A DNA stretch of 64,000 nucleotides from Candidatus Kaiserbacteria bacterium (GTDB taxonomy: Bacteria > Patescibacteriota > Minisyncoccia > Phycocordibacterales > UBA2100): the NCBI GenBank assembly GCA_017134395.1, contig CP070993.1, positions 398,199 to 462,198 of the forward strand, written 5' to 3'. A model generated the notes under the pieces. It saw only the letters and a list, made by a program, of their open reading frames with translations, did not search any database and had not been told where the DNA came from. Of this stretch, positions 4,375 through 59,197 are shown piece by piece. The translations under genes and the position numbers were made by a program. Numbering within the stretch: the first letter of the stretch is position 1; every line of letters starts with the position of its first letter.

Positions 4375-7715
<3,341 letters not shown>

Positions 7716-20114: not shown

Positions 20115-20942
20115 TTATACAACCAAAGAATAGGTCGTCCAGCGCTTTGAACCCTCCTTCTTTACCACATTATCGTGTACTAATGATTGCAGTTCTCGCT
20201 GAATTGTCTTTTCACTACAATCAGAAACCTCTGCTGCAATGTCCTTTATGTGAATAGGGCTCTTCTTAGTAATCACATCCAAAATAGCCATCCGCCGACT
20301 AGTAACACGTCGCTTTGACTTCAAAGATTGTGGGCGTTTATCCTTTTGCTGTTTAATGTCCTTTAAAGATTCTATGTCCGTAATAGTGTCCTTTATACTT
20401 TTGTCCTTTAGAGTTTTTGTTGTTTGTCCTTTAGAAGTTTGCTCTCTAGATTCAGAAGATGAAGGTGCAAGGAAATCATCTTCGTTTAACTCAATACTTT
20501 CAGACGCACTTCCCTGTTCTGATTTTGAAAGGAATCGTACAAGATCAGCGTACGCATACTTAAGTACACCTAAGTTCATCTCTGAAATATAGCCAGATGC
20601 ATGAGCGATATCAAGAAGTGAAAGTAATTGTCGCACGTGTGCTGAAATTGCATCTACGGAATCAGGGCCAGTGCTTTGAAAGCCTTCGCGCAAGCTCATT
20701 ACCATCGGCAGTAGATACTGGGCAGATTCACGGATATTCTCACGGACACTTTCGCTTTGTGGAACAAAATTTGTTACCAAATGAGTGGCGAGCACAAGAC
20801 GTTCAACTTTCTTGTAGGCTATTTCTGCAGCACGGTTTTGTCCGAAAGGACTCACGGACATATTTGCATCCAGAGAAATACCTTCATAATTGATGGGCTT
20901 ATATACTGCTTTATTGTCCTTTATAGTCATAGTAATGTCCAT
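20115..20942 (-). CDS. Hypothetical regulator with a C-terminal winged helix-turn-helix (DeoR-like HTH)
   Basis: The C-terminus RRMAILDVITKKSPIHIKDIAAEVSDCSEKTIQRELQSLVHDNVVKKEG fits the wHTH pattern. A Lys/Asp-rich linker is encoded by repeated TGTCCNTTA units. Confidence 0.5.
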   Translation of the reverse strand: MDITMTIKDNKAVYKPINYEGISLDANMSVSPFGQNRAAEIAYKKVERLVLATHLVTNFVPQSESVRENIRESAQYLLPMVMSLREGFQSTGPDSVDAISAHVRQLLSLLDIAHASGYISEMNLGVLKYAYADLVRFLSKSEQGSASESIELNEDDFLAPSSSESREQTSKGQTTKTLKDKSIKDTITDIESLKDIKQQKDKRPQSLKSKRRVTSRRMAILDVITKKSPIHIKDIAAEVSDCSEKTIQRELQSLVHDNVVKKEGSKRWTTYSLVV

Positions 20943-21060
20943 TATATAAAGGACAAATTGTTATAGACAATGTCCTTTATATGCATGTCCGTAAAGATGT
21001 CCTTTACGTTATGTCCATAATAGGTTTATGTCCGTTAAAGTCAAGGGTTCGTACATTGTA
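20930..21060. promoter_or_regulatory. Divergent promoter region (wHTH gene / ftsK) carrying at least six ATGTCC boxes, including aATGTCC-N10-GGACAa
   Basis: aatgtccatt, caatgtccttt, gcatgtccgt, agatgtccttt, ttatgtccat, ttatgtccgtt, all within 130 bp. Confidence 0.4.
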
Positions 21061-21207: not shown

Positions 21208-23574
21208 ATGATGGCAGTACGAACACGAAAGAAACCTATGGCTAAAAAGTCAAAGCCAAAAAGGGAAACGAAACGCGCGCGGCGTCGAAAGGAAGAAGAG
21301 TTTGAAGAAGAAGACTCACTGGGTCTTCCAATTCAATCTGAAACACTCAGAGGAGTGTGGGCAGTTTTTGCTATTGCAGCAGCTGTATTTTTTACTCTTG
21401 CATGGTTTGATGTTGCCGGTAAAGTCGGAACCACATTGTACATTTGGCTTTCTGCCTTCTTTGGGGTCGGCTATGTTCTTGTGCCGATTTCTTTTGCGAT
21501 GATAGCGGTAGTTTTGTTTCGTTCACTTGAACATGAACGTATCGGCACACTAAAAATTGTAGGGACCGGCATCTTCTTTCTTAGTGGTCTTGGGCTTGTG
21601 GAAACTTTGTTCCCGAGCCGTGGTGGCCTTATTGGACAACTTATTTCTGCACCACTTACGTACGCGGTGGATACTATTGCAACAATAGTTGTACTTCTTT
21701 CTTTAATTGTTATCTCACTACTCATTGCCTTCGATGCTCATCCGCAACATGCCTTCCCTACTATCTCTCGTTTGTGGAAACGCGAACGGGACGAAGAAGA
21801 GGAAGAGCAAGTGCTTGAAGATGAAGAAGAAGCGGTTATCGAATCTGGTACCGCTCGTGCAGAAGCTGAAGCAGAAGATGCAGACGAGGTCGAAGAGGAA
21901 CACGTTGAGGAGCCTAAAAAAAGTGGCGGCATATTTAACTTCGGAGGAACTGATGAACCGAACCCAGCTATATTTAACTTCGCAGCTGGAAGCAACGGAA
22001 CGTATTCTCCTCCTCCCCTTTCACTTCTACAGAAAGATAGAGGAAAGCCTTCAGTGGGCGATGTAAAAGCAAGTGCAAATACTATTAAACGAACACTCCA
22101 GAACTTTGGTATTAGTGTAGAAATGGATGAAGTGTCCATCGGTCCGACAGTAACACAATACGCAATGAAGCCAGCAGAAGGAGTGCGCCTCGCAAAAATC
22201 ATGAGCTTGCAGAGCAACTTAGAACTAGCGTTAGCTGCAACACCTATTCGTATCGAGGCACCAATTCCTGGAAAAGCACTGGTAGGTATTGAAGTACCAA
22301 ACACCACAAAGTCTACACTTGGTCTTGCCTCTATATTTAGTGACCACGAATTCCAAAATTCAGACAAACCACTTCTGATTGCACTTGGTCGTGATATTGC
22401 AGGAAAGCCGCACTACACGAACATTGCAAAGATGCCCCACCTTCTTATTGCTGGAGCAACAGGTGCTGGTAAGTCTGTAACGGTGCACGATATTATTGTG
22501 TCTCTTCTCTACCGAAGAGGTCCACAGGAATTACGTTTTGTTATGGTAGACCCTAAGCGAGTAGAGCTTACGATGTACAACGAGATTCCTCACCTTCTTA
22601 CCCCGGTTATTACCGATCCAAAAAAGGCCATTCTTGCGCTTAAGTGGCTCGCGAAAGAGATGGATAGACGGTACGATATTCTTGAAACTGAGAAAGTACG
22701 AGACATTGCTTCGTACCACAAAAACATCTTTGAGCCTGCGCAGAAGAAAAAGAAAGACGATGATTCTGAAATGCCAGAACCAATGCCATATATTGTTGCT
22801 ATTGTTGATGAAATGGCAGACCTTATGACTTCGTACCCACGTGAACTCGAAGCATCTATTGTACGCCTTGCCCAAATGAGTCGTGCGGTAGGTATTCACC
22901 TTATCCTTTCAACACAACGTCCAAGTGTGCAGGTTATTACCGGACTCATTAAGGCAAACATCCCTTCACGAATTGCTCTGCAGGTATCTTCACAAATTGA
23001 TTCGCGAACGATTCTCGACATGGGAGGTGCTGAAAAACTTCTTGGTGCTGGTGATATGCTCTATCTTTCAGGGGAAATGAGTAAACCCCACCGTATTCAA
23101 GCGCCGTATGTATCTGAAGAAGAAGTAAAGAGCATAGTGAAATACCTTAAAGACTCTCATGAAGACGAGCTTCCTGATAAAATCGACCTCACTGAGGTAA
23201 TGCACGATAACAGTGTCTTCTCTGCAAGTGTGGGAAGTGACGATGACGATGACGACGACCTCTACGAAGAAGCGAAGCGCGTTATTATTGAAGCAGGAAA
23301 AGGCTCAACATCATTCTTACAAAGAAAGCTACGTGTCGGATACGCTCGTGCAGCACGCCTTATGGACATGCTAGAAGAACGAGGTGTTGTGGGCCCAGCT
23401 GAAGGATCGAAAGCTCGTGAAGTAATCGACCAAAGTGCAGAAACTATGCCTGAGACAGAAGAATTAGAAGATGAAACGGGAGAAGTTGAAGAAGTATACG
23501 GAGAGAGCGATGAGGAAGACACCGAAACTGAGTACGATGAAGAAGAATTAGAAGATGAAGAAAAAACTCGCTAA
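21208..23574 (+). CDS. ftsK: DNA translocase FtsK/SpoIIIE
   Basis: N-terminal TM region; motor domain with LLIAGATGAGKSVTVHDIIVSL (Walker A) and FVMVDPKRVELT; C-terminal gamma wHTH (LYEEAKRVIIEAGKGSTSFLQRKLRVGYARAARLMDMLE) followed by an acidic tail. Confidence 0.9.
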   Translation: MMAVRTRKKPMAKKSKPKRETKRARRRKEEEFEEEDSLGLPIQSETLRGVWAVFAIAAAVFFTLAWFDVAGKVGTTLYIWLSAFFGVGYVLVPISFAMIAVVLFRSLEHERIGTLKIVGTGIFFLSGLGLVETLFPSRGGLIGQLISAPLTYAVDTIATIVVLLSLIVISLLIAFDAHPQHAFPTISRLWKRERDEEEEEQVLEDEEEAVIESGTARAEAEAEDADEVEEEHVEEPKKSGGIFNFGGTDEPNPAIFNFAAGSNGTYSPPPLSLLQKDRGKPSVGDVKASANTIKRTLQNFGISVEMDEVSIGPTVTQYAMKPAEGVRLAKIMSLQSNLELALAATPIRIEAPIPGKALVGIEVPNTTKSTLGLASIFSDHEFQNSDKPLLIALGRDIAGKPHYTNIAKMPHLLIAGATGAGKSVTVHDIIVSLLYRRGPQELRFVMVDPKRVELTMYNEIPHLLTPVITDPKKAILALKWLAKEMDRRYDILETEKVRDIASYHKNIFEPAQKKKKDDDSEMPEPMPYIVAIVDEMADLMTSYPRELEASIVRLAQMSRAVGIHLILSTQRPSVQVITGLIKANIPSRIALQVSSQIDSRTILDMGGAEKLLGAGDMLYLSGEMSKPHRIQAPYVSEEEVKSIVKYLKDSHEDELPDKIDLTEVMHDNSVFSASVGSDDDDDDDLYEEAKRVIIEAGKGSTSFLQRKLRVGYARAARLMDMLEERGVVGPAEGSKAREVIDQSAETMPETEELEDETGEVEEVYGESDEEDTETEYDEEELEDEEKTR

Positions 23575-23997: not shown

Positions 23998-25092
23998 ATG
24001 AGTGCAGCAAAGAAGAAAGTAGCGAAGAAAGTGAAAAAAGTTTCGACAGCAAGCGAAACGAAAAAGAAGGACAAGACTGTAGAAAAAGCAGCAGCTCCTG
24101 CAGAGAAGAAGAGCAATACAAAGGTAGATGCAGCTATCGCAGATATAAAGAGTAAGTTCGGTGACGAAGCCATCATGATGCTGGGAGAACACGCAAAAGT
24201 TGATGTGGACGTTATTCCAACTGGTTCTATTGGTATCGACTGGGCACTTGGCATTGGAGGGCTTCCACGCGGACGTATTATTGAGGTATACGGACCAGAG
24301 TCTTCCGGTAAGACTACCCTCTCTCTACACGCTATAGCTGAGGCTCAGAAGCTAGGTGGTGTATGTGCCTTCGTAGATGCTGAGCATGCTCTTGACCCAG
24401 TGTACGCAAAAAAGCTCGGTGTAAAAACCCAAGACCTCCTTATTGCACAACCAGACACAGGAGAACAGGCACTTGAGATTGTAGAAAGCTTGGTTCGCTC
24501 AGGAAATATCGATATTATCGTTGTTGACTCTGTTGCAGCCCTTACGCCAAAAGATGAGATCGAGGGAGATATGGGTGCACACCAAATGGGAAAACAAGCT
24601 CGCCTTATGTCGCAAGCAATGCGTAAACTGACTGCTATTTCTGCAAAAAGTAAGACGGTGATTATTTTCATCAACCAAGTTCGCATGAAAATAGGAATGG
24701 TCTTTGGTAATCCAGAAACAACAACTGGTGGTAAGGCTCTAAAATTCTATAGTTCTGTACGAATTGATATCCGACGTATTGCACAGATTAAAAAAGGTAC
24801 TGAAATCATGGGAGGACGCCACCGTGTGAAGATTGTGAAGAACAAGGTTGCTGCACCATTCCGCACTGCTGAATTTGACCTCCTCTACAATGAAGGTATC
24901 TCGCGTGAAGGTGAGCTTTTAGCGCTTGGAGAGAAAATGGGGGTTATCGAAAAATCGGGAGCATCATACAAGTTTGATGACATTGCACTGGGTCGTGGGT
25001 ATGATGCCGCACGTACCTATTTGCATGAAAATAAGAAAGTGGCGAGTGCTGTTCTTAAAGAAATTAAGGGCAAACTCAAAGACGCTGTCTAA
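23998..25092 (+). CDS. recA: Recombinase RecA with a Lys-rich N-terminal extension
   Basis: [58 protein letters not shown] are canonical RecA motifs. They are preceded by about 40 aa of K-rich sequence ([26 protein letters not shown]...). Confidence 0.95.
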
Positions 25093-25186: not shown

Positions 25187-25750
25187 ATGCTTTCATATAC
25201 AGAAGTAAAACCAGGAGTGCTTATTATTTTAGATGGTGATCCGTTTGAAGTTATGGCAACCAGCGGTGTCGTTAAGAAACAGCGACAAAAGCCTCACAAC
25301 ACTGCAAAAATGAAGAACTTACGCAGTGGTTCTACAGTTGAAAAAACCTATACTCAGGCAGATAAAATAATTGAAGCAGATATTTCGATTCGGGAGATAC
25401 AGTTTATCTACGAGAACCGCGGAGAGATTATGTTCGCTGATCCAAACAATCCAAAAGATCGCTTTTCTCTTCCTGAGGAGCTCATTGGAGAAAAACTAAA
25501 CTACATACGTGAAAAAGACATCGTAGAGGCTAAAGTATTTGAAGATGACATTATTGGTCTTCGTGTTCCTATTAAAGTTGAACTGGAAGTAATCGAGGCA
25601 CCACCTAACATACGAGGAAATACCTCGGCTGGCGGAAACAAAGTGGTGACACTAGAAACTGGCCTTAACGTTACTACCCCACTCTTTATAGAAGCTGGTG
25701 ACACTATTCGCGTAAATACGGAGACTGGAGAATACGTTGAACGAGTCTAG
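25187..25750 (+). CDS. efp: Elongation factor P
   Basis: 187 aa with the EF-P three-domain pattern (GVLIILDGDPFEV...; NVTTPLFIEAGDTIRVNTETGEYVERV). Confidence 0.9.
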   Translation: MLSYTEVKPGVLIILDGDPFEVMATSGVVKKQRQKPHNTAKMKNLRSGSTVEKTYTQADKIIEADISIREIQFIYENRGEIMFADPNNPKDRFSLPEELIGEKLNYIREKDIVEAKVFEDDIIGLRVPIKVELEVIEAPPNIRGNTSAGGNKVVTLETGLNVTTPLFIEAGDTIRVNTETGEYVERV

Positions 25751-25760
25751 GACCTTCCTT

Positions 25761-25787
25761 AACTTAGGACATCCGATGTCCTAAGTT
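25761..25787. repeat. 27-nt perfect palindrome with core GGACATCCGATGTCC (copy 1 of 2)
   Basis: aacttaggacatccgatgtcctaagtt, 11 nt after the efp stop; the 15-nt core is identical to 47602-47616. Confidence 0.6.
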
Positions 25788-25806: not shown

Positions 25807-25856
25807 AGAACGAATAAACCGCCAAAGTGCTGTGCACTTTGGCGGTTTATTCGTTC
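25807..25856. terminator. Bidirectional terminator with a 22-bp perfect stem between convergent efp and rpsR
   Basis: gaacgaataaaccgccaaagtgc-tgt-gcactttggcggtttattcgttc. Confidence 0.7.
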
Positions 25857-45832: not shown

Positions 45833-46273
45833 ATGAAATATCACTTTGAACGTACTTTTACAGATTGGTTACGAAAATTTTTGTCAGCTCCTTTCGTTCT
45901 GATAATGTTCCTTCCGCTTATTATTCTCGATGTCTTTCTTGAGATATATCATCAAATAAGTTTTCGGTTGCTAAAAATCCCGCGTGTACCACGCTGGGAC
46001 TATATTCGTATTGATAGACACAAACTTAGCTATCTGACGCCAGCACAAAAAGTGTTTTGCGCTTATTGTGGTTACGCAAACGGACTTCTACCCTATGCAG
46101 CAAAAATTGCAGCAGAAAGTGAAAAATACTGGTGTGCAATAATGCACAAAAAGAATGAAAATGATTCTTTCATCATTCCTGACCACCATAAAGATTTTAT
46201 TGAACATGGCGACAAAGAAACCTATGAAGCTGAGATAGAACGGGCAAAATCTGAAGCAAAAAAGTCTCACTAA
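45833..46273 (+). CDS. Hypothetical membrane protein with conserved Cys/His motifs (CAYCGY...YWCAIMH)
   Basis: 146 aa with one TM helix; followed by a perfect bidirectional terminator. Confidence 0.45.
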   Translation: MKYHFERTFTDWLRKFLSAPFVLIMFLPLIILDVFLEIYHQISFRLLKIPRVPRWDYIRIDRHKLSYLTPAQKVFCAYCGYANGLLPYAAKIAAESEKYWCAIMHKKNENDSFIIPDHHKDFIEHGDKETYEAEIERAKSEAKKSH

Positions 46274-46276
46274 ACA

Positions 46277-46322
46277 AAAACGCCTCATCCGCCAGCTGGC
46301 GGATGAGGCGTTTTTGTTATCG
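46277..46322. terminator. Bidirectional terminator (17-bp perfect stem); rplK ends here with no rplA following
   Basis: aaaacgcctcatccgcc-agct-ggcggatgaggcgttttt. Confidence 0.7.
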
Positions 46323-47530: not shown

Positions 47531-47560
47531 CCCTTTCGGGCGGTTATATGACTATAATAC
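47531..47560 (-). terminator. Hairpin terminator
   Basis: On the minus strand: ccgccc-gaaa-gggcg followed by ttttaatttt. Confidence 0.45.
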
Positions 47561-47597
47561 GGATATTTTGCGCTGAGTCAAGATGTATCGTCTGGTA

Positions 47598-47620
47598 CTG
47601 CTCTTCAATATGGACATCCG
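47598..47620. repeat. 23-nt perfect palindrome with core GGACATCCGATGTCC (copy 2 of 2)
   Basis: atatggacatccgatgtccatat, in the 3' region of the thioredoxin-like gene. Confidence 0.6.
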
Positions 47621-47711
47621 ATGTCCATATATCTTATTCAAATTAAGTGGGCAAGTAGTACTGCGGTTAATAAGATATCGCGCTATACAACTCTTCTTTC
47701 TGTTTTGTATC

Positions 47712-48305
47712 TTAAATCGAACACGTACCTTCTCCCCCAAGACACAGTGAACGACTTTTAGTTGAACCATTGGGTTGTGAGCGCTTGGTTAACAACAAAA
47801 TAGTATCTCTCATCTCCTGTAGCGACATCACTCCTCGCTTATGGAATAACACAGTCCCTTCTTCATCTACAAACACCGTTTCTGGCATGCCAAATCCTTC
47901 GATGAAGCGATAAAACGAATCTTGTGGGTCAAATAAGATATGTAGCTTATCGCTTAGCGTTAGTGTCTTCAAGAAGTCTTGCGCATCCGCTGAAGATTCT
48001 CCACGATTAATAGCAATCACGGGCACCTCAGGAAACTCATCGGCAAGCAGAGCAAGATCTGGCAATTCTTCTACACAAAACGGGCACCAGCTCGCCCATG
48101 CGTTGATAACAACAACAGGAGCTTTGTACTGCTCGAGTGTTTGGCAATTTCCATTTTCATCTGCATACGTCAGTGAATATAGTGAGCCCTCATCGTATGT
48201 ACACGCTACCCCTTCTTGAGGCTGCAAAAGAAAGGAAATACTTCCAATAATTACAATTGTAACGAGGAGCAAAGACACTGTTTGTTTTGTAACAAATCTT
48301 TTCAT
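47712..48305 (-). CDS. TlpA/ResA-like membrane-anchored thiol-disulfide oxidoreductase (thioredoxin fold)
   Basis: The WASWCPFC CxxC motif and an N-terminal TM helix; the start was trimmed to MKRFVTKQ... Confidence 0.8.
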   Translation of the reverse strand: MKRFVTKQTVSLLLVTIVIIGSISFLLQPQEGVACTYDEGSLYSLTYADENGNCQTLEQYKAPVVVINAWASWCPFCVEELPDLALLADEFPEVPVIAINRGESSADAQDFLKTLTLSDKLHILFDPQDSFYRFIEGFGMPETVFVDEEGTVLFHKRGVMSLQEMRDTILLLTKRSQPNGSTKSRSLCLGGEGTCSI

Positions 48306-48307
48306 AT

Positions 48308-49369
48308 CTAGAGCATTAATTCTGTTTCTGGATGAACAGCAAGCCAAGAGAACCAAAAACCTCCAATATACGAGAACGGTGTGTCACCAATGTTCATTCG
48401 CACCTCACCAATTTCGCTTTTAGTAATAGTTATCGTCTCACCTGCAAACGTGTCGGTAGTAACACCCACTGGGAGACTGTCGGCAACATATGCTTTAAAG
48501 TTGCCCTCATGCTCTACACCAAGTACATATTCCTTAGGATGCAGCCGTGCATCGCTAAACGTTGCACCAAATGATACATCTCGATTTGTGTAGTAATCAC
48601 CATACGGATCTCGTCCGTAGATACGAATTGCTCCAGTGTCTTTTGAGAGTACTTGAGTTTCTGGGTATTGCTTCTTCCAATCGCCAAATTTCACTGTGTC
48701 TGAAGGTACAATAGTGAGCCGTTTTCCAGTATGAACTCCCGTCACCGCACGTCCAAGTACTTGTGACCACAGTGACTCGTTGTCTTCATTATTGGTTCGG
48801 TTGTACATCAGTAAATTCGACTTCCATAGTTTTCCTGAAACACCAAACTCTACTACCTCGTCGTCAACGCGACGTTCATAAGTAACGCCAGTACGACACA
48901 GTGGACAGTACGTGACTGCAACAGACAATTCTTCTACAGACCCATTCACCGGCAATACATCGTTTACAATCTCATGCCACACGAGTATTTGGAACGGGTA
49001 AAAACGGGCAACATCTCCATGCACAATGCCCATACCAAAATCATCGTCGTCTAAAAATGTTGCCTTCTCTACTGAAATGAATTTCGGCTCATCGATTGAA
49101 GGGATTCCGTCTTTCCCAGGGCCACCTGAAAGGATTTCATCCTCGGGTATCCCTTTGAAACCATCATCGGCTGTAATTTTCGGAGTTGTCTGTGTTTGTG
49201 TGTTTGTGGTTTCAGAAACTTCTGAAGGAGTGGTATCTGTTATTGCGGAGTCTGTTTTTTCAACATCTGAAACGACTTCGGATTCTTGGTTATTTGCCAT
49301 ATAGAAAAAAATGCTAGCGATTAACACGATGATAACGATGCCTATACTCACTATTTTAAGATTATTCAT
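48308..49369 (-). CDS. DUF3179-family membrane-anchored protein
   Basis: GGPGKDGIPSIDEPKF and YCPLCRTG motifs are typical of DUF3179; the start was trimmed to MNNLKIV... Confidence 0.65.
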   Translation of the reverse strand: MNNLKIVSIGIVIIVLIASIFFYMANNQESEVVSDVEKTDSAITDTTPSEVSETTNTQTQTTPKITADDGFKGIPEDEILSGGPGKDGIPSIDEPKFISVEKATFLDDDDFGMGIVHGDVARFYPFQILVWHEIVNDVLPVNGSVEELSVAVTYCPLCRTGVTYERRVDDEVVEFGVSGKLWKSNLLMYNRTNNEDNESLWSQVLGRAVTGVHTGKRLTIVPSDTVKFGDWKKQYPETQVLSKDTGAIRIYGRDPYGDYYTNRDVSFGATFSDARLHPKEYVLGVEHEGNFKAYVADSLPVGVTTDTFAGETITITKSEIGEVRMNIGDTPFSYIGGFWFSWLAVHPETELML

Positions 49370-50289: not shown

Positions 50290-50405
50290 CTTCTTTCTCC
50301 GCTTTTGGGAACTTGCTACAGTTGAGTATACATATACATACTTGGAGCACAACAATAAACGCCTCACAAATGTGAGGCGTTTATTGTACATGTGAATTCC
50401 AGGGC

Positions 50406-52442: not shown

Positions 52443-52479
52443 CAAAATAAACAAAAGAGCGCCAATGGCGCTCTTTTGT

Positions 52480-53121
52480 TTATCCTTCTTTCTTTTCTTC
52501 TGGTTGTTCTTCCTCTTTTGTTTCTTCTTCAGCTTTTGGAGCTTCTTCTGTTACCTCTTCTTCTGTTTCTAGAGCTTCTTCTTCTGTTTTAGTTTCCTCT
52601 GTTGCGTCTTCTGTAGATTCTACCTCTTCAGCTGGGGCTTCTGCTGCTGCCTTTGCTTCTTCCTCTTCTTGTCGTGCAGCTTCCTCTTCTTGTCGCTTAG
52701 TTTCTTCGGCTTCTGCTACCTTACGTTCAGCTTCTAATTCGAGCGAGCCTTTTGTAGAAACACCTGACATAGTAGTTCGTCGGAATACACGCTTCAGTTC
52801 TCGAGCAACCTTGTCTCGAATAAAGTAAAGCTTTGCTCGGCGAACCTTTGATCGCTTCACGATTTCAATCTTGTCGATTGATGGCATGTACAGTGGAAAA
52901 ATCTTTTCAACACCTACACCGTTTGTCACTTTTCGTACGGTAAATGTACCTCCAGCTTCGTTTCCGTGCTTTCGTGCAAGTACTAAGCCTTCAAATGCCT
53001 GTAAACGTGTCTTGCCTTTTTCTTCAATTTTTAACCATACGCGAACAGTGTCCCCGGCTTTAATACCGAGCTCTGCGCGTTCTTTCATGTCCACTGGACT
53101 GGTAACTACTTTGTTCTTCAT
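52480..53121 (-). CDS. rplS: 50S ribosomal protein L19 with an approximately 100-aa Glu/Ala/Lys-rich C-terminal extension
   Basis: [78 protein letters not shown] is L19. It is followed by an acidic tail. Confidence 0.9.
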
Positions 53122-58922: not shown

Positions 58923-59147
58923 AACCCCGGCTCGCCCATTCTCCTGGTTAGTCGAACATGACTCCGCCCGACACAACATCAAAAAAAGAAAGCAGTTTTT
59001 GTTTGTGACCACTGATCACTAAACTCATACTTCGTCCTTCGGACTTGTATTTACTAAGTGTCTTTGGTCTGGGCTCAACTGTCTTCGCTTCGCTCATACA
59101 TGTTTCCGCCTGACACCGATATACGCAAGCAAAGCAGTTTGCTTGCT

Positions 59148-59190
59148 AAACGAAAACACTTTGCGCTAGTAGCGCAAAGTGTTTTCGTTT
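59148..59190. terminator. 43-nt perfect palindrome (19-bp stem) downstream of tRNA-Arg; bidirectional terminator-like
   Basis: aaacgaaaacactttgcgc-tagta-gcgcaaagtgttttcgttt. Confidence 0.6.
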
Positions 59191-59197
59191 ACATCGG

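Follow-up and report, generated by a model that had tools for sequence, protein, structure and literature searches.

The 64-kb stretch of contig CP070993.1 from Candidatus Kaiserbacteria bacterium (GCA_017134395.1) that was analysed here, referred to as the window, carries two short hairpin-forming palindromes which share a 15-nt core and belong to a family of hairpins built on that core in metagenomes. Copy 1 is intergenic, beginning 10 nt past the stop codon of efp (identified through Pfam), and is followed 20 nt further on by a terminator-like hairpin with a 23-bp stem that also serves the convergent rpsR. Copy 2 is likewise intergenic and lies 81 nt downstream of a redoxin/thioredoxin-like gene, with a short terminator past it, ahead of secE-nusG-rplK (Table 1). 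Both placements, after efp and before a stem-hairpin terminator, and between the thioredoxin-like gene and a terminator, had been anticipated by the original prediction, with which the gene and terminator calls agree.

An exact scan with GGACATCCGATGTCC returned two matches in the window, as predicted, and no further match was found in the 64 kb when up to three mismatches were allowed. Copy 1 is a perfect dyad of 27 nt with 13-nt arms and copy 2 one of 23 nt with 11-nt arms, so that the symmetry runs beyond the 15-mer by 6 and 4 bp, respectively. Each is centred on one unpaired C, because of which neither is strictly a full palindrome, and their reverse strand reads ...CATCGGATG... Such longer dyads had been proposed for both sites, and both are present; the position first assigned to copy 2 (47598-47620) was 10 nt too low. 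Folded as single-stranded DNA (ssDNA), copy 1 reached -10.6 kcal/mol (z = -6.7) and copy 2 -8.0 kcal/mol (z = -5.5), with none of 200 shuffles as stable in either case. Viral contigs, used as a control for chance, held only single 15-mer matches lacking flank symmetry, and in 25 of these 27 the dyad extended by just 0-2 bp; the window dyads are not a chance pattern. Neither copy acts as a recognisable intrinsic terminator, defined by a G+C-rich hairpin and a T run: the terminator scan did not call copy 1, and copy 2 gave a marginal match, on the strand opposite to the upstream gene, that falls short of this definition.

The history of the efp site was followed through an EF-P search, which gave 80 loci (L001-L080), all of them records of metagenome-assembled genomes (MAGs) and most of Paceibacterota, Kaiserbacteria or Parcubacteria type. 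In the nearest relative, L001 (UBA2100; EF-P 96% identical), efp is followed by this 27-nt dyad with G in place of C at the centre as its sole change; the 10-nt spacer that separates the dyad from the stop codon has diverged. From L002 (EF-P 84% identical) to L012 no dyad follows efp, which runs directly into the terminator, and L001 alone among the 80 loci contains the exact core. The element is therefore lineage-specific at this site, being kept in L001 and missing from L002 and more distant loci.

Copies elsewhere were sought in metagenomes with the pattern WWGGACATCCGATGTCCWW, which requires A/T flanks. The matches listed comprise 158 exact copies on at least 120 contigs of 23-65% GC; they lie within 746 kb of loci selected by this pattern, with up to four copies in 2.7 kb. 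The unit of the family is a hairpin with perfect pairing; its 15-nt tip is invariant and reads GGACATC-S-GATGTCC, S standing for an unpaired C or G at the centre (core GGACATCSGATGTCC), and the fullest consensus of the unit is approximately CCCCAAAG(Y)T(W)-core-(W)A(R)CTTTGGGG. The dyad continues for at least 4 bp past the core in 96 of the 158 listed copies, the longest extension being 23 bp. Across 150 distinct copies the flanks follow the profile aaa-(C/T)-T-(T/A)-core-(A/T)-A-(G/A)-ttt, and their complementarity falls to background about 11 nt from the core. The outer arms vary in sequence from copy to copy and keep their self-complementarity, and copies of one contig share longer common arms, for example CAAAGCTA-core-TAGCTTTG. 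The core itself is very uniform, with 13 one-mismatch and 12 two-mismatch variants in the pattern-selected loci, about five of the latter showing compensatory changes in the two arms. Arm pairing is maintained across the family, in keeping with the emphasis that the original prediction had placed on the hairpin.

Both window copies are singlets. Their relatives also occur as doublets with a spacing of 3-48 nt, and in 22 of 24 distinct doublets the two centre bases are opposite, which marks an inverted, REPIN-like orientation; each of these doublets amounts to a larger perfect palindrome. The variant represented by copy 2, with ATAT/ATATAT flanks, recurs in metagenome loci L110, L140, L166, L188 and L225. 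With at least 158 metagenome copies, and copy 1 retained in L001, the pair is no isolated coincidence confined to one genome. The extended symmetry had been read as speaking against copy-paste; the elements instead form a family of copied, presumably mobilised units.

When the open reading frames (ORFs) near the listed copies were clustered without bias, one recurrent protein family emerged, present in 11 loci. Its gene adjoins a copy in nine of them, at no more than about 55 nt from the start or stop, and copies flank it on both sides in all five loci that hold both gene ends on the contig. The proteins, of 195-235 aa (about 215 aa), score 32-37 bits against Pfam Y1_Tnp (PF01797; cutoff 23). 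They retain an H-u-H motif (NHYHLL) and a tyrosine motif (YIPYYIHLN), with H69, H71 and Y129 invariant in 34 homologues. An AlphaFold model of good confidence (pLDDT 85, pTM 0.84) had as its top Foldseek match 4ER8_A (E = 1.9e-4, probability 1.00), the E. coli REP-associated tyrosine transposase (RAYT; REP, repetitive extragenic palindrome) with a bound REP hairpin, followed by the TnpA proteins of IS608, ISDra2 and IS200. Judged by motifs and predicted fold, the copy-linked proteins are Y1 HUH transposases of the RAYT type, and the hairpin family is physically linked to their genes in related genomes.

The linkage was also approached from the opposite side. A protein-only homologue search yielded 2072 clusters at E <= 1e-10, with source names that include 'transposase [Patescibacteria group bacterium]', Candidatus Kaiserbacteria RIFCSPLOWO2_01_FULL_55_19 and Parcubacteria 20-58-5. 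Contigs for P0020 (Kaiserbacteria GCA_001781715.1) and P0028 were then chosen by protein alone. In both lineages, namely the Kaiserbacteria MAG (L228-231) and L232-234, the exact core brackets the RAYT gene, within hairpins of 15-19-bp arms (CCCCAAAGTY-core-RACTTTGGGG) whose centre bases are opposite on the two sides of the gene. RAYT stands beside gapA-rpiB in three lineages, these two and L114, with rpe and tkt beyond in the two that have longer contigs, and the RAYTs, at 77% and 73% identity, have diverged about as much as the genes next to them. Such synteny with neighbour-like divergence suggests a resident, vertically inherited gene and not a hopping insertion sequence (IS).

For other RAYT homologues (L017, L022, L031, L080, L120, L111 and a paralogue in L228), the bracketing palindrome is likewise odd-centred, differs from the one above and is particular to each gene, examples being TGTCGGGACGTA-N-TACGTCCCGACA and CTAGCAAGAAC-N-GTTCTTGCTAG. 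This suggests that several REP/RAYT pairs co-exist in Patescibacteria. One RAYT with one REP type is the pattern described for REPtrons (Quentin 2018, PMC6006769; Bertels 2017, PMC5581495).

The position of the 158 listed copies relative to genes was assessed with a crude ORF call. Outside ORFs lie 99 of them, among tandem, convergent and divergent neighbours; 16 cases fall between divergent gene starts, and many metagenome copies follow an ORF end by 0-25 nt. The other 59 are inside ORFs, in all three frames; the 40 of them within ORFs of at least 250 aa also cover all frames and translate as TSDV, DIGC/DIRC or GHPMS/GHRMS according to the frame. Pfam matches identify the host ORFs as real genes, among them those for LeuRS, NAD-dependent DNA ligase (LigA), ArgRS, GatB, PurH and a class II aminoacyl-tRNA synthetase. 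In LeuRS proteins from four contigs, 48-58% identical, a copy occupies the same loop, which precedes the FTTRPDT motif, and is read in different frames, and in a family of S-adenosylmethionine (SAM) methyltransferases it is present in the L134, L153 and L179 orthologues and missing from that of L204. Some singles with zero extension, for instance in FTHFS, are probably chance matches. No family copy was detected in the rRNA genes of the 17 loci scanned.

We consider it highly probable that the two window palindromes are solo copies of a REP-like (REP/REPIN-type) family of Patescibacteria, whose members bracket RAYT genes in relatives. A REP-like element was among the candidates originally proposed, and it is the one favoured by a core that recurs in at least 120 contigs and flanks RAYT-type transposase genes. 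By analogy with E. coli TnpA-REP and the TnpA proteins of IS200/IS605, we infer that RAYT moves these hairpins. A RAYT dimer would recognise the hairpin in ssDNA, for example at replication forks, and would then cleave and rejoin beside it, a reaction that would disperse copies to tolerated sites; in the window, these would be the short stretches that separate stop codon and terminator downstream of efp and of the redoxin gene. The RAYT gene is presumably still encoded by this genome. A side effect of the copies on the 3' ends of the efp and redoxin transcripts is conceivable.

Several observations weigh against this interpretation. Neither a RAYT homologue nor the gapA cluster occurs in the 64-kb window. 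At two copies per 64 kb, and with the exact core in one of 80 efp loci, the density is far below that of classical REPs. A GT[AG]G/CGTC tag at the foot of the hairpin is missing from the profile built on 150 distinct copies, a search immediately outside the arms revealed no target motif, and single copies show no strand or orientation bias of the kind that would suggest lagging-strand targeting. With a quarter of the listed copies (40 of 158) in ORFs of 250 aa or more, the name 'extragenic' does not strictly apply to the family. On the protein side, the best NCBIfam match, REP_Tyr_transpos (NF047646), remains below its cutoff (41 and 20 against 80 bits), and the RAYT is therefore a distant relative and not an equivalog. 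A profile search of the PDB reached ISDra2 TnpA alone and weakly (E = 0.07), and a single-sequence search gave no match there.

Beyond the two window copies, the data allow a wider and more tentative proposal, namely that a vertically inherited RAYT-REP partnership may extend across much of Patescibacteria and possibly to other ultra-small lineages, with the hairpin tip frozen and essential genes carrying in-frame copies. We regard this as possible and somewhat doubtful. Its reach to other ultra-small lineages is suggested by contigs of 23-27% GC that carry the core, and the 15-nt tip is identical letter for letter while RAYTs and host proteins have diverged to 33-60% identity. If true, the frozen tip and the in-frame copies in essential genes would imply host-level selection on the hairpin and a function beyond selfish spread, in bacteria whose genomes rank among the smallest and most streamlined.

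The alternative that survives best is that the hairpins are the ends, or leftover solo ends, of autonomous IS200-like elements, in which case the window copies would be debris resembling miniature inverted-repeat transposable elements (MITEs). A RAYT gene with its flanking hairpins spans about 0.8 kb, the size of an IS200; many RAYT homologues are found on contigs of 0.8-2 kb, as expected of repeated elements; and the predicted fold matches the TnpA proteins of IS608 and ISDra2 nearly as well as 4ER8. At the edge of the L114 contig, moreover, a 790-bp unit of two hairpins and a RAYT gene appears to be tandemly repeated, which could reflect a real duplication, a circular form or an assembly loop. 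The two kinds of system share the Y1 HUH fold, the small unit and, by analogy, the recognition of a sub-terminal ssDNA hairpin. However, IS200, IS608 and ISDra2 have distinct left and right ends and many identical transposase-bearing copies, whereas here an identical symmetric hairpin stands at both ends, the transposase keeps to one syntenic locus beside gapA-rpiB in three lineages with divergence like that of its neighbours, and it is mostly the bare hairpin that has multiplied (158 listed copies against nine adjacent RAYT genes). The proteins, at about 215 aa, are also RAYT-like in length, compared with the 130-150 aa usual for IS200 TnpA. An IS200-like origin consequently appears improbable to us.

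A second alternative, that the hairpins are primarily RNA elements of 3' untranslated regions selected by the host, whether as exonuclease barriers, RNase targets or translation-coupled regulators at stop codons, is very unlikely. It draws on the window copies, both of which follow a stop codon and precede a terminator, copy 1 being as close as 10 nt to the efp stop, and on the many metagenome copies within 25 nt after an ORF end. In E. coli, REPs stabilise upstream mRNA and affect translation near stop codons, according to work cited in PMC6006769. Yet copies also lie between divergent starts, inside ORFs in three frames and around RAYT genes, and the association with RAYT would be left unexplained. 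Pairing in one strand of RNA would be expected to leave an excess of G.T over A.C among the arm mismatches, and the flank profile contains none. At the efp site the window and L001 have different centre bases, and in single copies the centre base shows no association with GC skew or gene strand (p ~0.8). The mRNA stabiliser and RNase target among the original candidates lose their appeal on the same grounds, given copies in 5', 3' and in-ORF contexts, arms free of a G.U-type bias and a centre base that is not fixed with respect to transcription.

Least credible is the view of the dyad as the operator of a dimeric DNA-binding protein, for which a 275-aa winged helix-turn-helix (wHTH) protein encoded in the window would be the candidate. 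The protein has a weak C-terminal winged-helix match, its gene is divergent from ftsK, and about 14 sites of the TAAAGGACA type form arrays upstream of the gene and inside it, in a KD-rich linker, the upstream region consisting mostly of direct repeats. About 50 Paceibacterota loci retain the gene pair, both arrays and an inverted pair, TGTCC-N10-GGACA, located at the start codon; the protein is probably an autoregulated DNA-binding protein. The element and the arrays have in common GGACA(T), the core of the TAAAGGACA motif. Positions T -4, A -3 and A -2 of the arrays are, however, unmatched in the half-sites CTTAGGACA and ATATGGACA, and the family consensus before GGACA, a-C-T-T/A, departs from the array motif T-A-A-A/C-GGACA. 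Dozens of loci have the arrays and no 15-mer, and operators need no self-complementary flanks of up to 23 bp and do not bracket a transposase gene. The protein-binding dyad suggested earlier fares no better, in view of copies in every context (5', 3' and in-ORF) and of the same unfixed centre base. Two further dyads with GGACAT had been called related to the palindromes; both sites exist, one in these arrays and the other in the 23S rRNA gene, and they share the GGACA(T) letters only and belong to other features. The arrays were also considered as oriC or DnaA boxes and rejected, there being no switch near 21 kb in either cumulative GC skew or gene orientation. No exact-protein record was on file for the window EF-P, the wHTH protein or P0014.

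Other candidates could be set aside briefly. A CsrA-type GGA-loop RNA site is contradicted by the two window sites, of which only one has GGA on the transcript strand, and the copy density is far too low for a DNA-uptake sequence. A sequencing-adapter artefact is incompatible with the presence of the element in independent assemblies of many projects and with ORFs that stay in frame.

The REP/REPIN-RAYT systems of Escherichia coli, Pseudomonas and Stenotrophomonas, reportedly described in Nunvar 2010, Bertels & Rainey 2011, Ton-Hoang 2012 and Messing 2012 (PDB 4ER8), share with the present family short hairpin repeats that are dispersed mainly between genes. In both, the same repeat brackets a HUH/Y1 transposase gene (a REPtron), here in relatives of the window genome and probably resident there, each RAYT paralogue has its own repeat type, inverted doublets occur and RAYT synteny is kept; the best predicted-fold match, 4ER8, comes from this group as well. 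The Patescibacteria hairpins differ in being perfect dyads with a single unpaired centre, whereas classical REPs are imperfect, bulged palindromes, and in lacking the GT[AG]G/CGTC tag. REP classes that are atypical in having no such tag have been reported (PMC6006769). Further differences are a 15-nt core that is identical over genomes of 23-65% GC and RAYTs 33-60% identical, the low density in the window, the quarter of sampled copies found in-frame in long ORFs, a host group outside the Proteobacteria and a RAYT under the NCBIfam equivalog threshold. The Rickettsia palindromic elements (RPEs) offer another parallel, as palindromic repeats in-frame in housekeeping genes that are read as extra peptide loops; they measure 100-150 bp, compared with 15-40 bp (or doublets) for the RAYT-linked Patescibacteria elements, and we know of no cognate transposase for them.

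To our knowledge, REP/RAYT systems have been characterised almost entirely in Proteobacteria. In the full-text literature searched, neither the 15-mer sequence nor REP/RAYT systems in Patescibacteria were found described; a 2026 preprint contains no more than a listed RAYT annotation for a DPANN archaeon. This kind of element is already known, and the present family is not yet described in this bacterial group. Its unusual traits are the frozen core over very diverse genomes and the in-frame copies in housekeeping genes, a form of exonisation. The family extends the range of systems made of a domesticated transposase and a hairpin population to ultra-small, streamlined genomes, and its perfect hairpin, with an unchanging tip of 15 nt, makes a very simple model. 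For annotators, the motif accounts for odd palindromes in 3' regions and for TSDV, DIGC and GHPMS insertions in housekeeping proteins, and the hairpins may explain some of the assembly breaks in Patescibacteria MAGs. For the window itself the consequences are modest, with two solo copies and, at most, a possible effect on the neighbouring genes.

Table 1. Positions of the palindromes and of the other features discussed, in window coordinates unless a metagenome locus (L) is given.
Feature	Position	Strand	Remarks
REP-like palindrome, copy 1	25761-25787	.	AACTTAGGACATC-C-GATGTCCTAAGTT; core 25767-25781; sequence and hairpin scan
REP-like palindrome, copy 2	47608-47630	.	ATATGGACATC-C-GATGTCCATAT; core 47612-47626; sequence and hairpin scan
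efp	25187-25750		Pfam
Redoxin/thioredoxin-like gene	47712-48356	minus	
Short terminator past copy 2	47542-47529	minus	
Sigma-70-like promoter match	47554-47581	minus	TTGACT-16-TATTAT, 10/12
Loci with a copy-adjacent RAYT gene	L114, L175, L207, L145, L161, L192, L198, L116, L147		
Unit of two hairpins and RAYT, apparently repeated	L114:1-950		
Other RAYT and palindrome units	L228:2761-3512; L031:1047-2110; L080:2409-3180; L022:434-1239; L017:12021-12867; L120:2767-3488		
LeuRS in-frame copies	L160:8934-8984; L193:3349-3390; L227:5767-5808; L167:~3222		same surface loop
Long-stem intergenic hairpins	25808-25856 (after copy 1); 46273-46318; 59147-59191; 50352-50387; 52447-52483		examples from hairpin scan
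Gene of 275-aa protein, weak winged-helix match	20115-20942	minus	
TAAAGGACA-type arrays	20240-20425; 20915-21030		
ftsK	21208-23574	plus	
recA	23998-25092		
23S rRNA gene	4375-7708	minus	
Palindrome in 23S rRNA gene	6440-6483		21-bp arms; tip GGACAUGUUUACAUGUCC
Group I intron	4830-5110		Rfam RF00028, 85 bits

Apart from the two palindromes, many intergenic hairpins of the window have unusually long perfect stems (17-23 bp) flanked by A/T runs, and from these features they look like bidirectional terminators; comparison with L001 reveals a compensatory change of a pair in the hairpin that follows efp. A good sigma-70-like promoter match is located between copy 2 and the short terminator; with the terminator hairpin immediately following and secE just downstream, it could represent a leader or an attenuator. 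The N-terminus of RecA is extended by about 45 residues, rich in lysine and alanine, ahead of the conserved core.

The palindrome in the 23S rRNA gene is perfect and arises from a 33-nt insertion at the loop of helix 45, which we take to be the classical site of 23S intervening sequences. It resembles those of Salmonella, Leptospira and Campylobacter in being a self-complementary extra at the tip of helix 45, and differs from them in its small size. Having a different core and not the 15-nt one, it lies outside the hairpin family, and it is unique among the 2.3 Mb compared. The same 23S rRNA gene also contains a group I intron.

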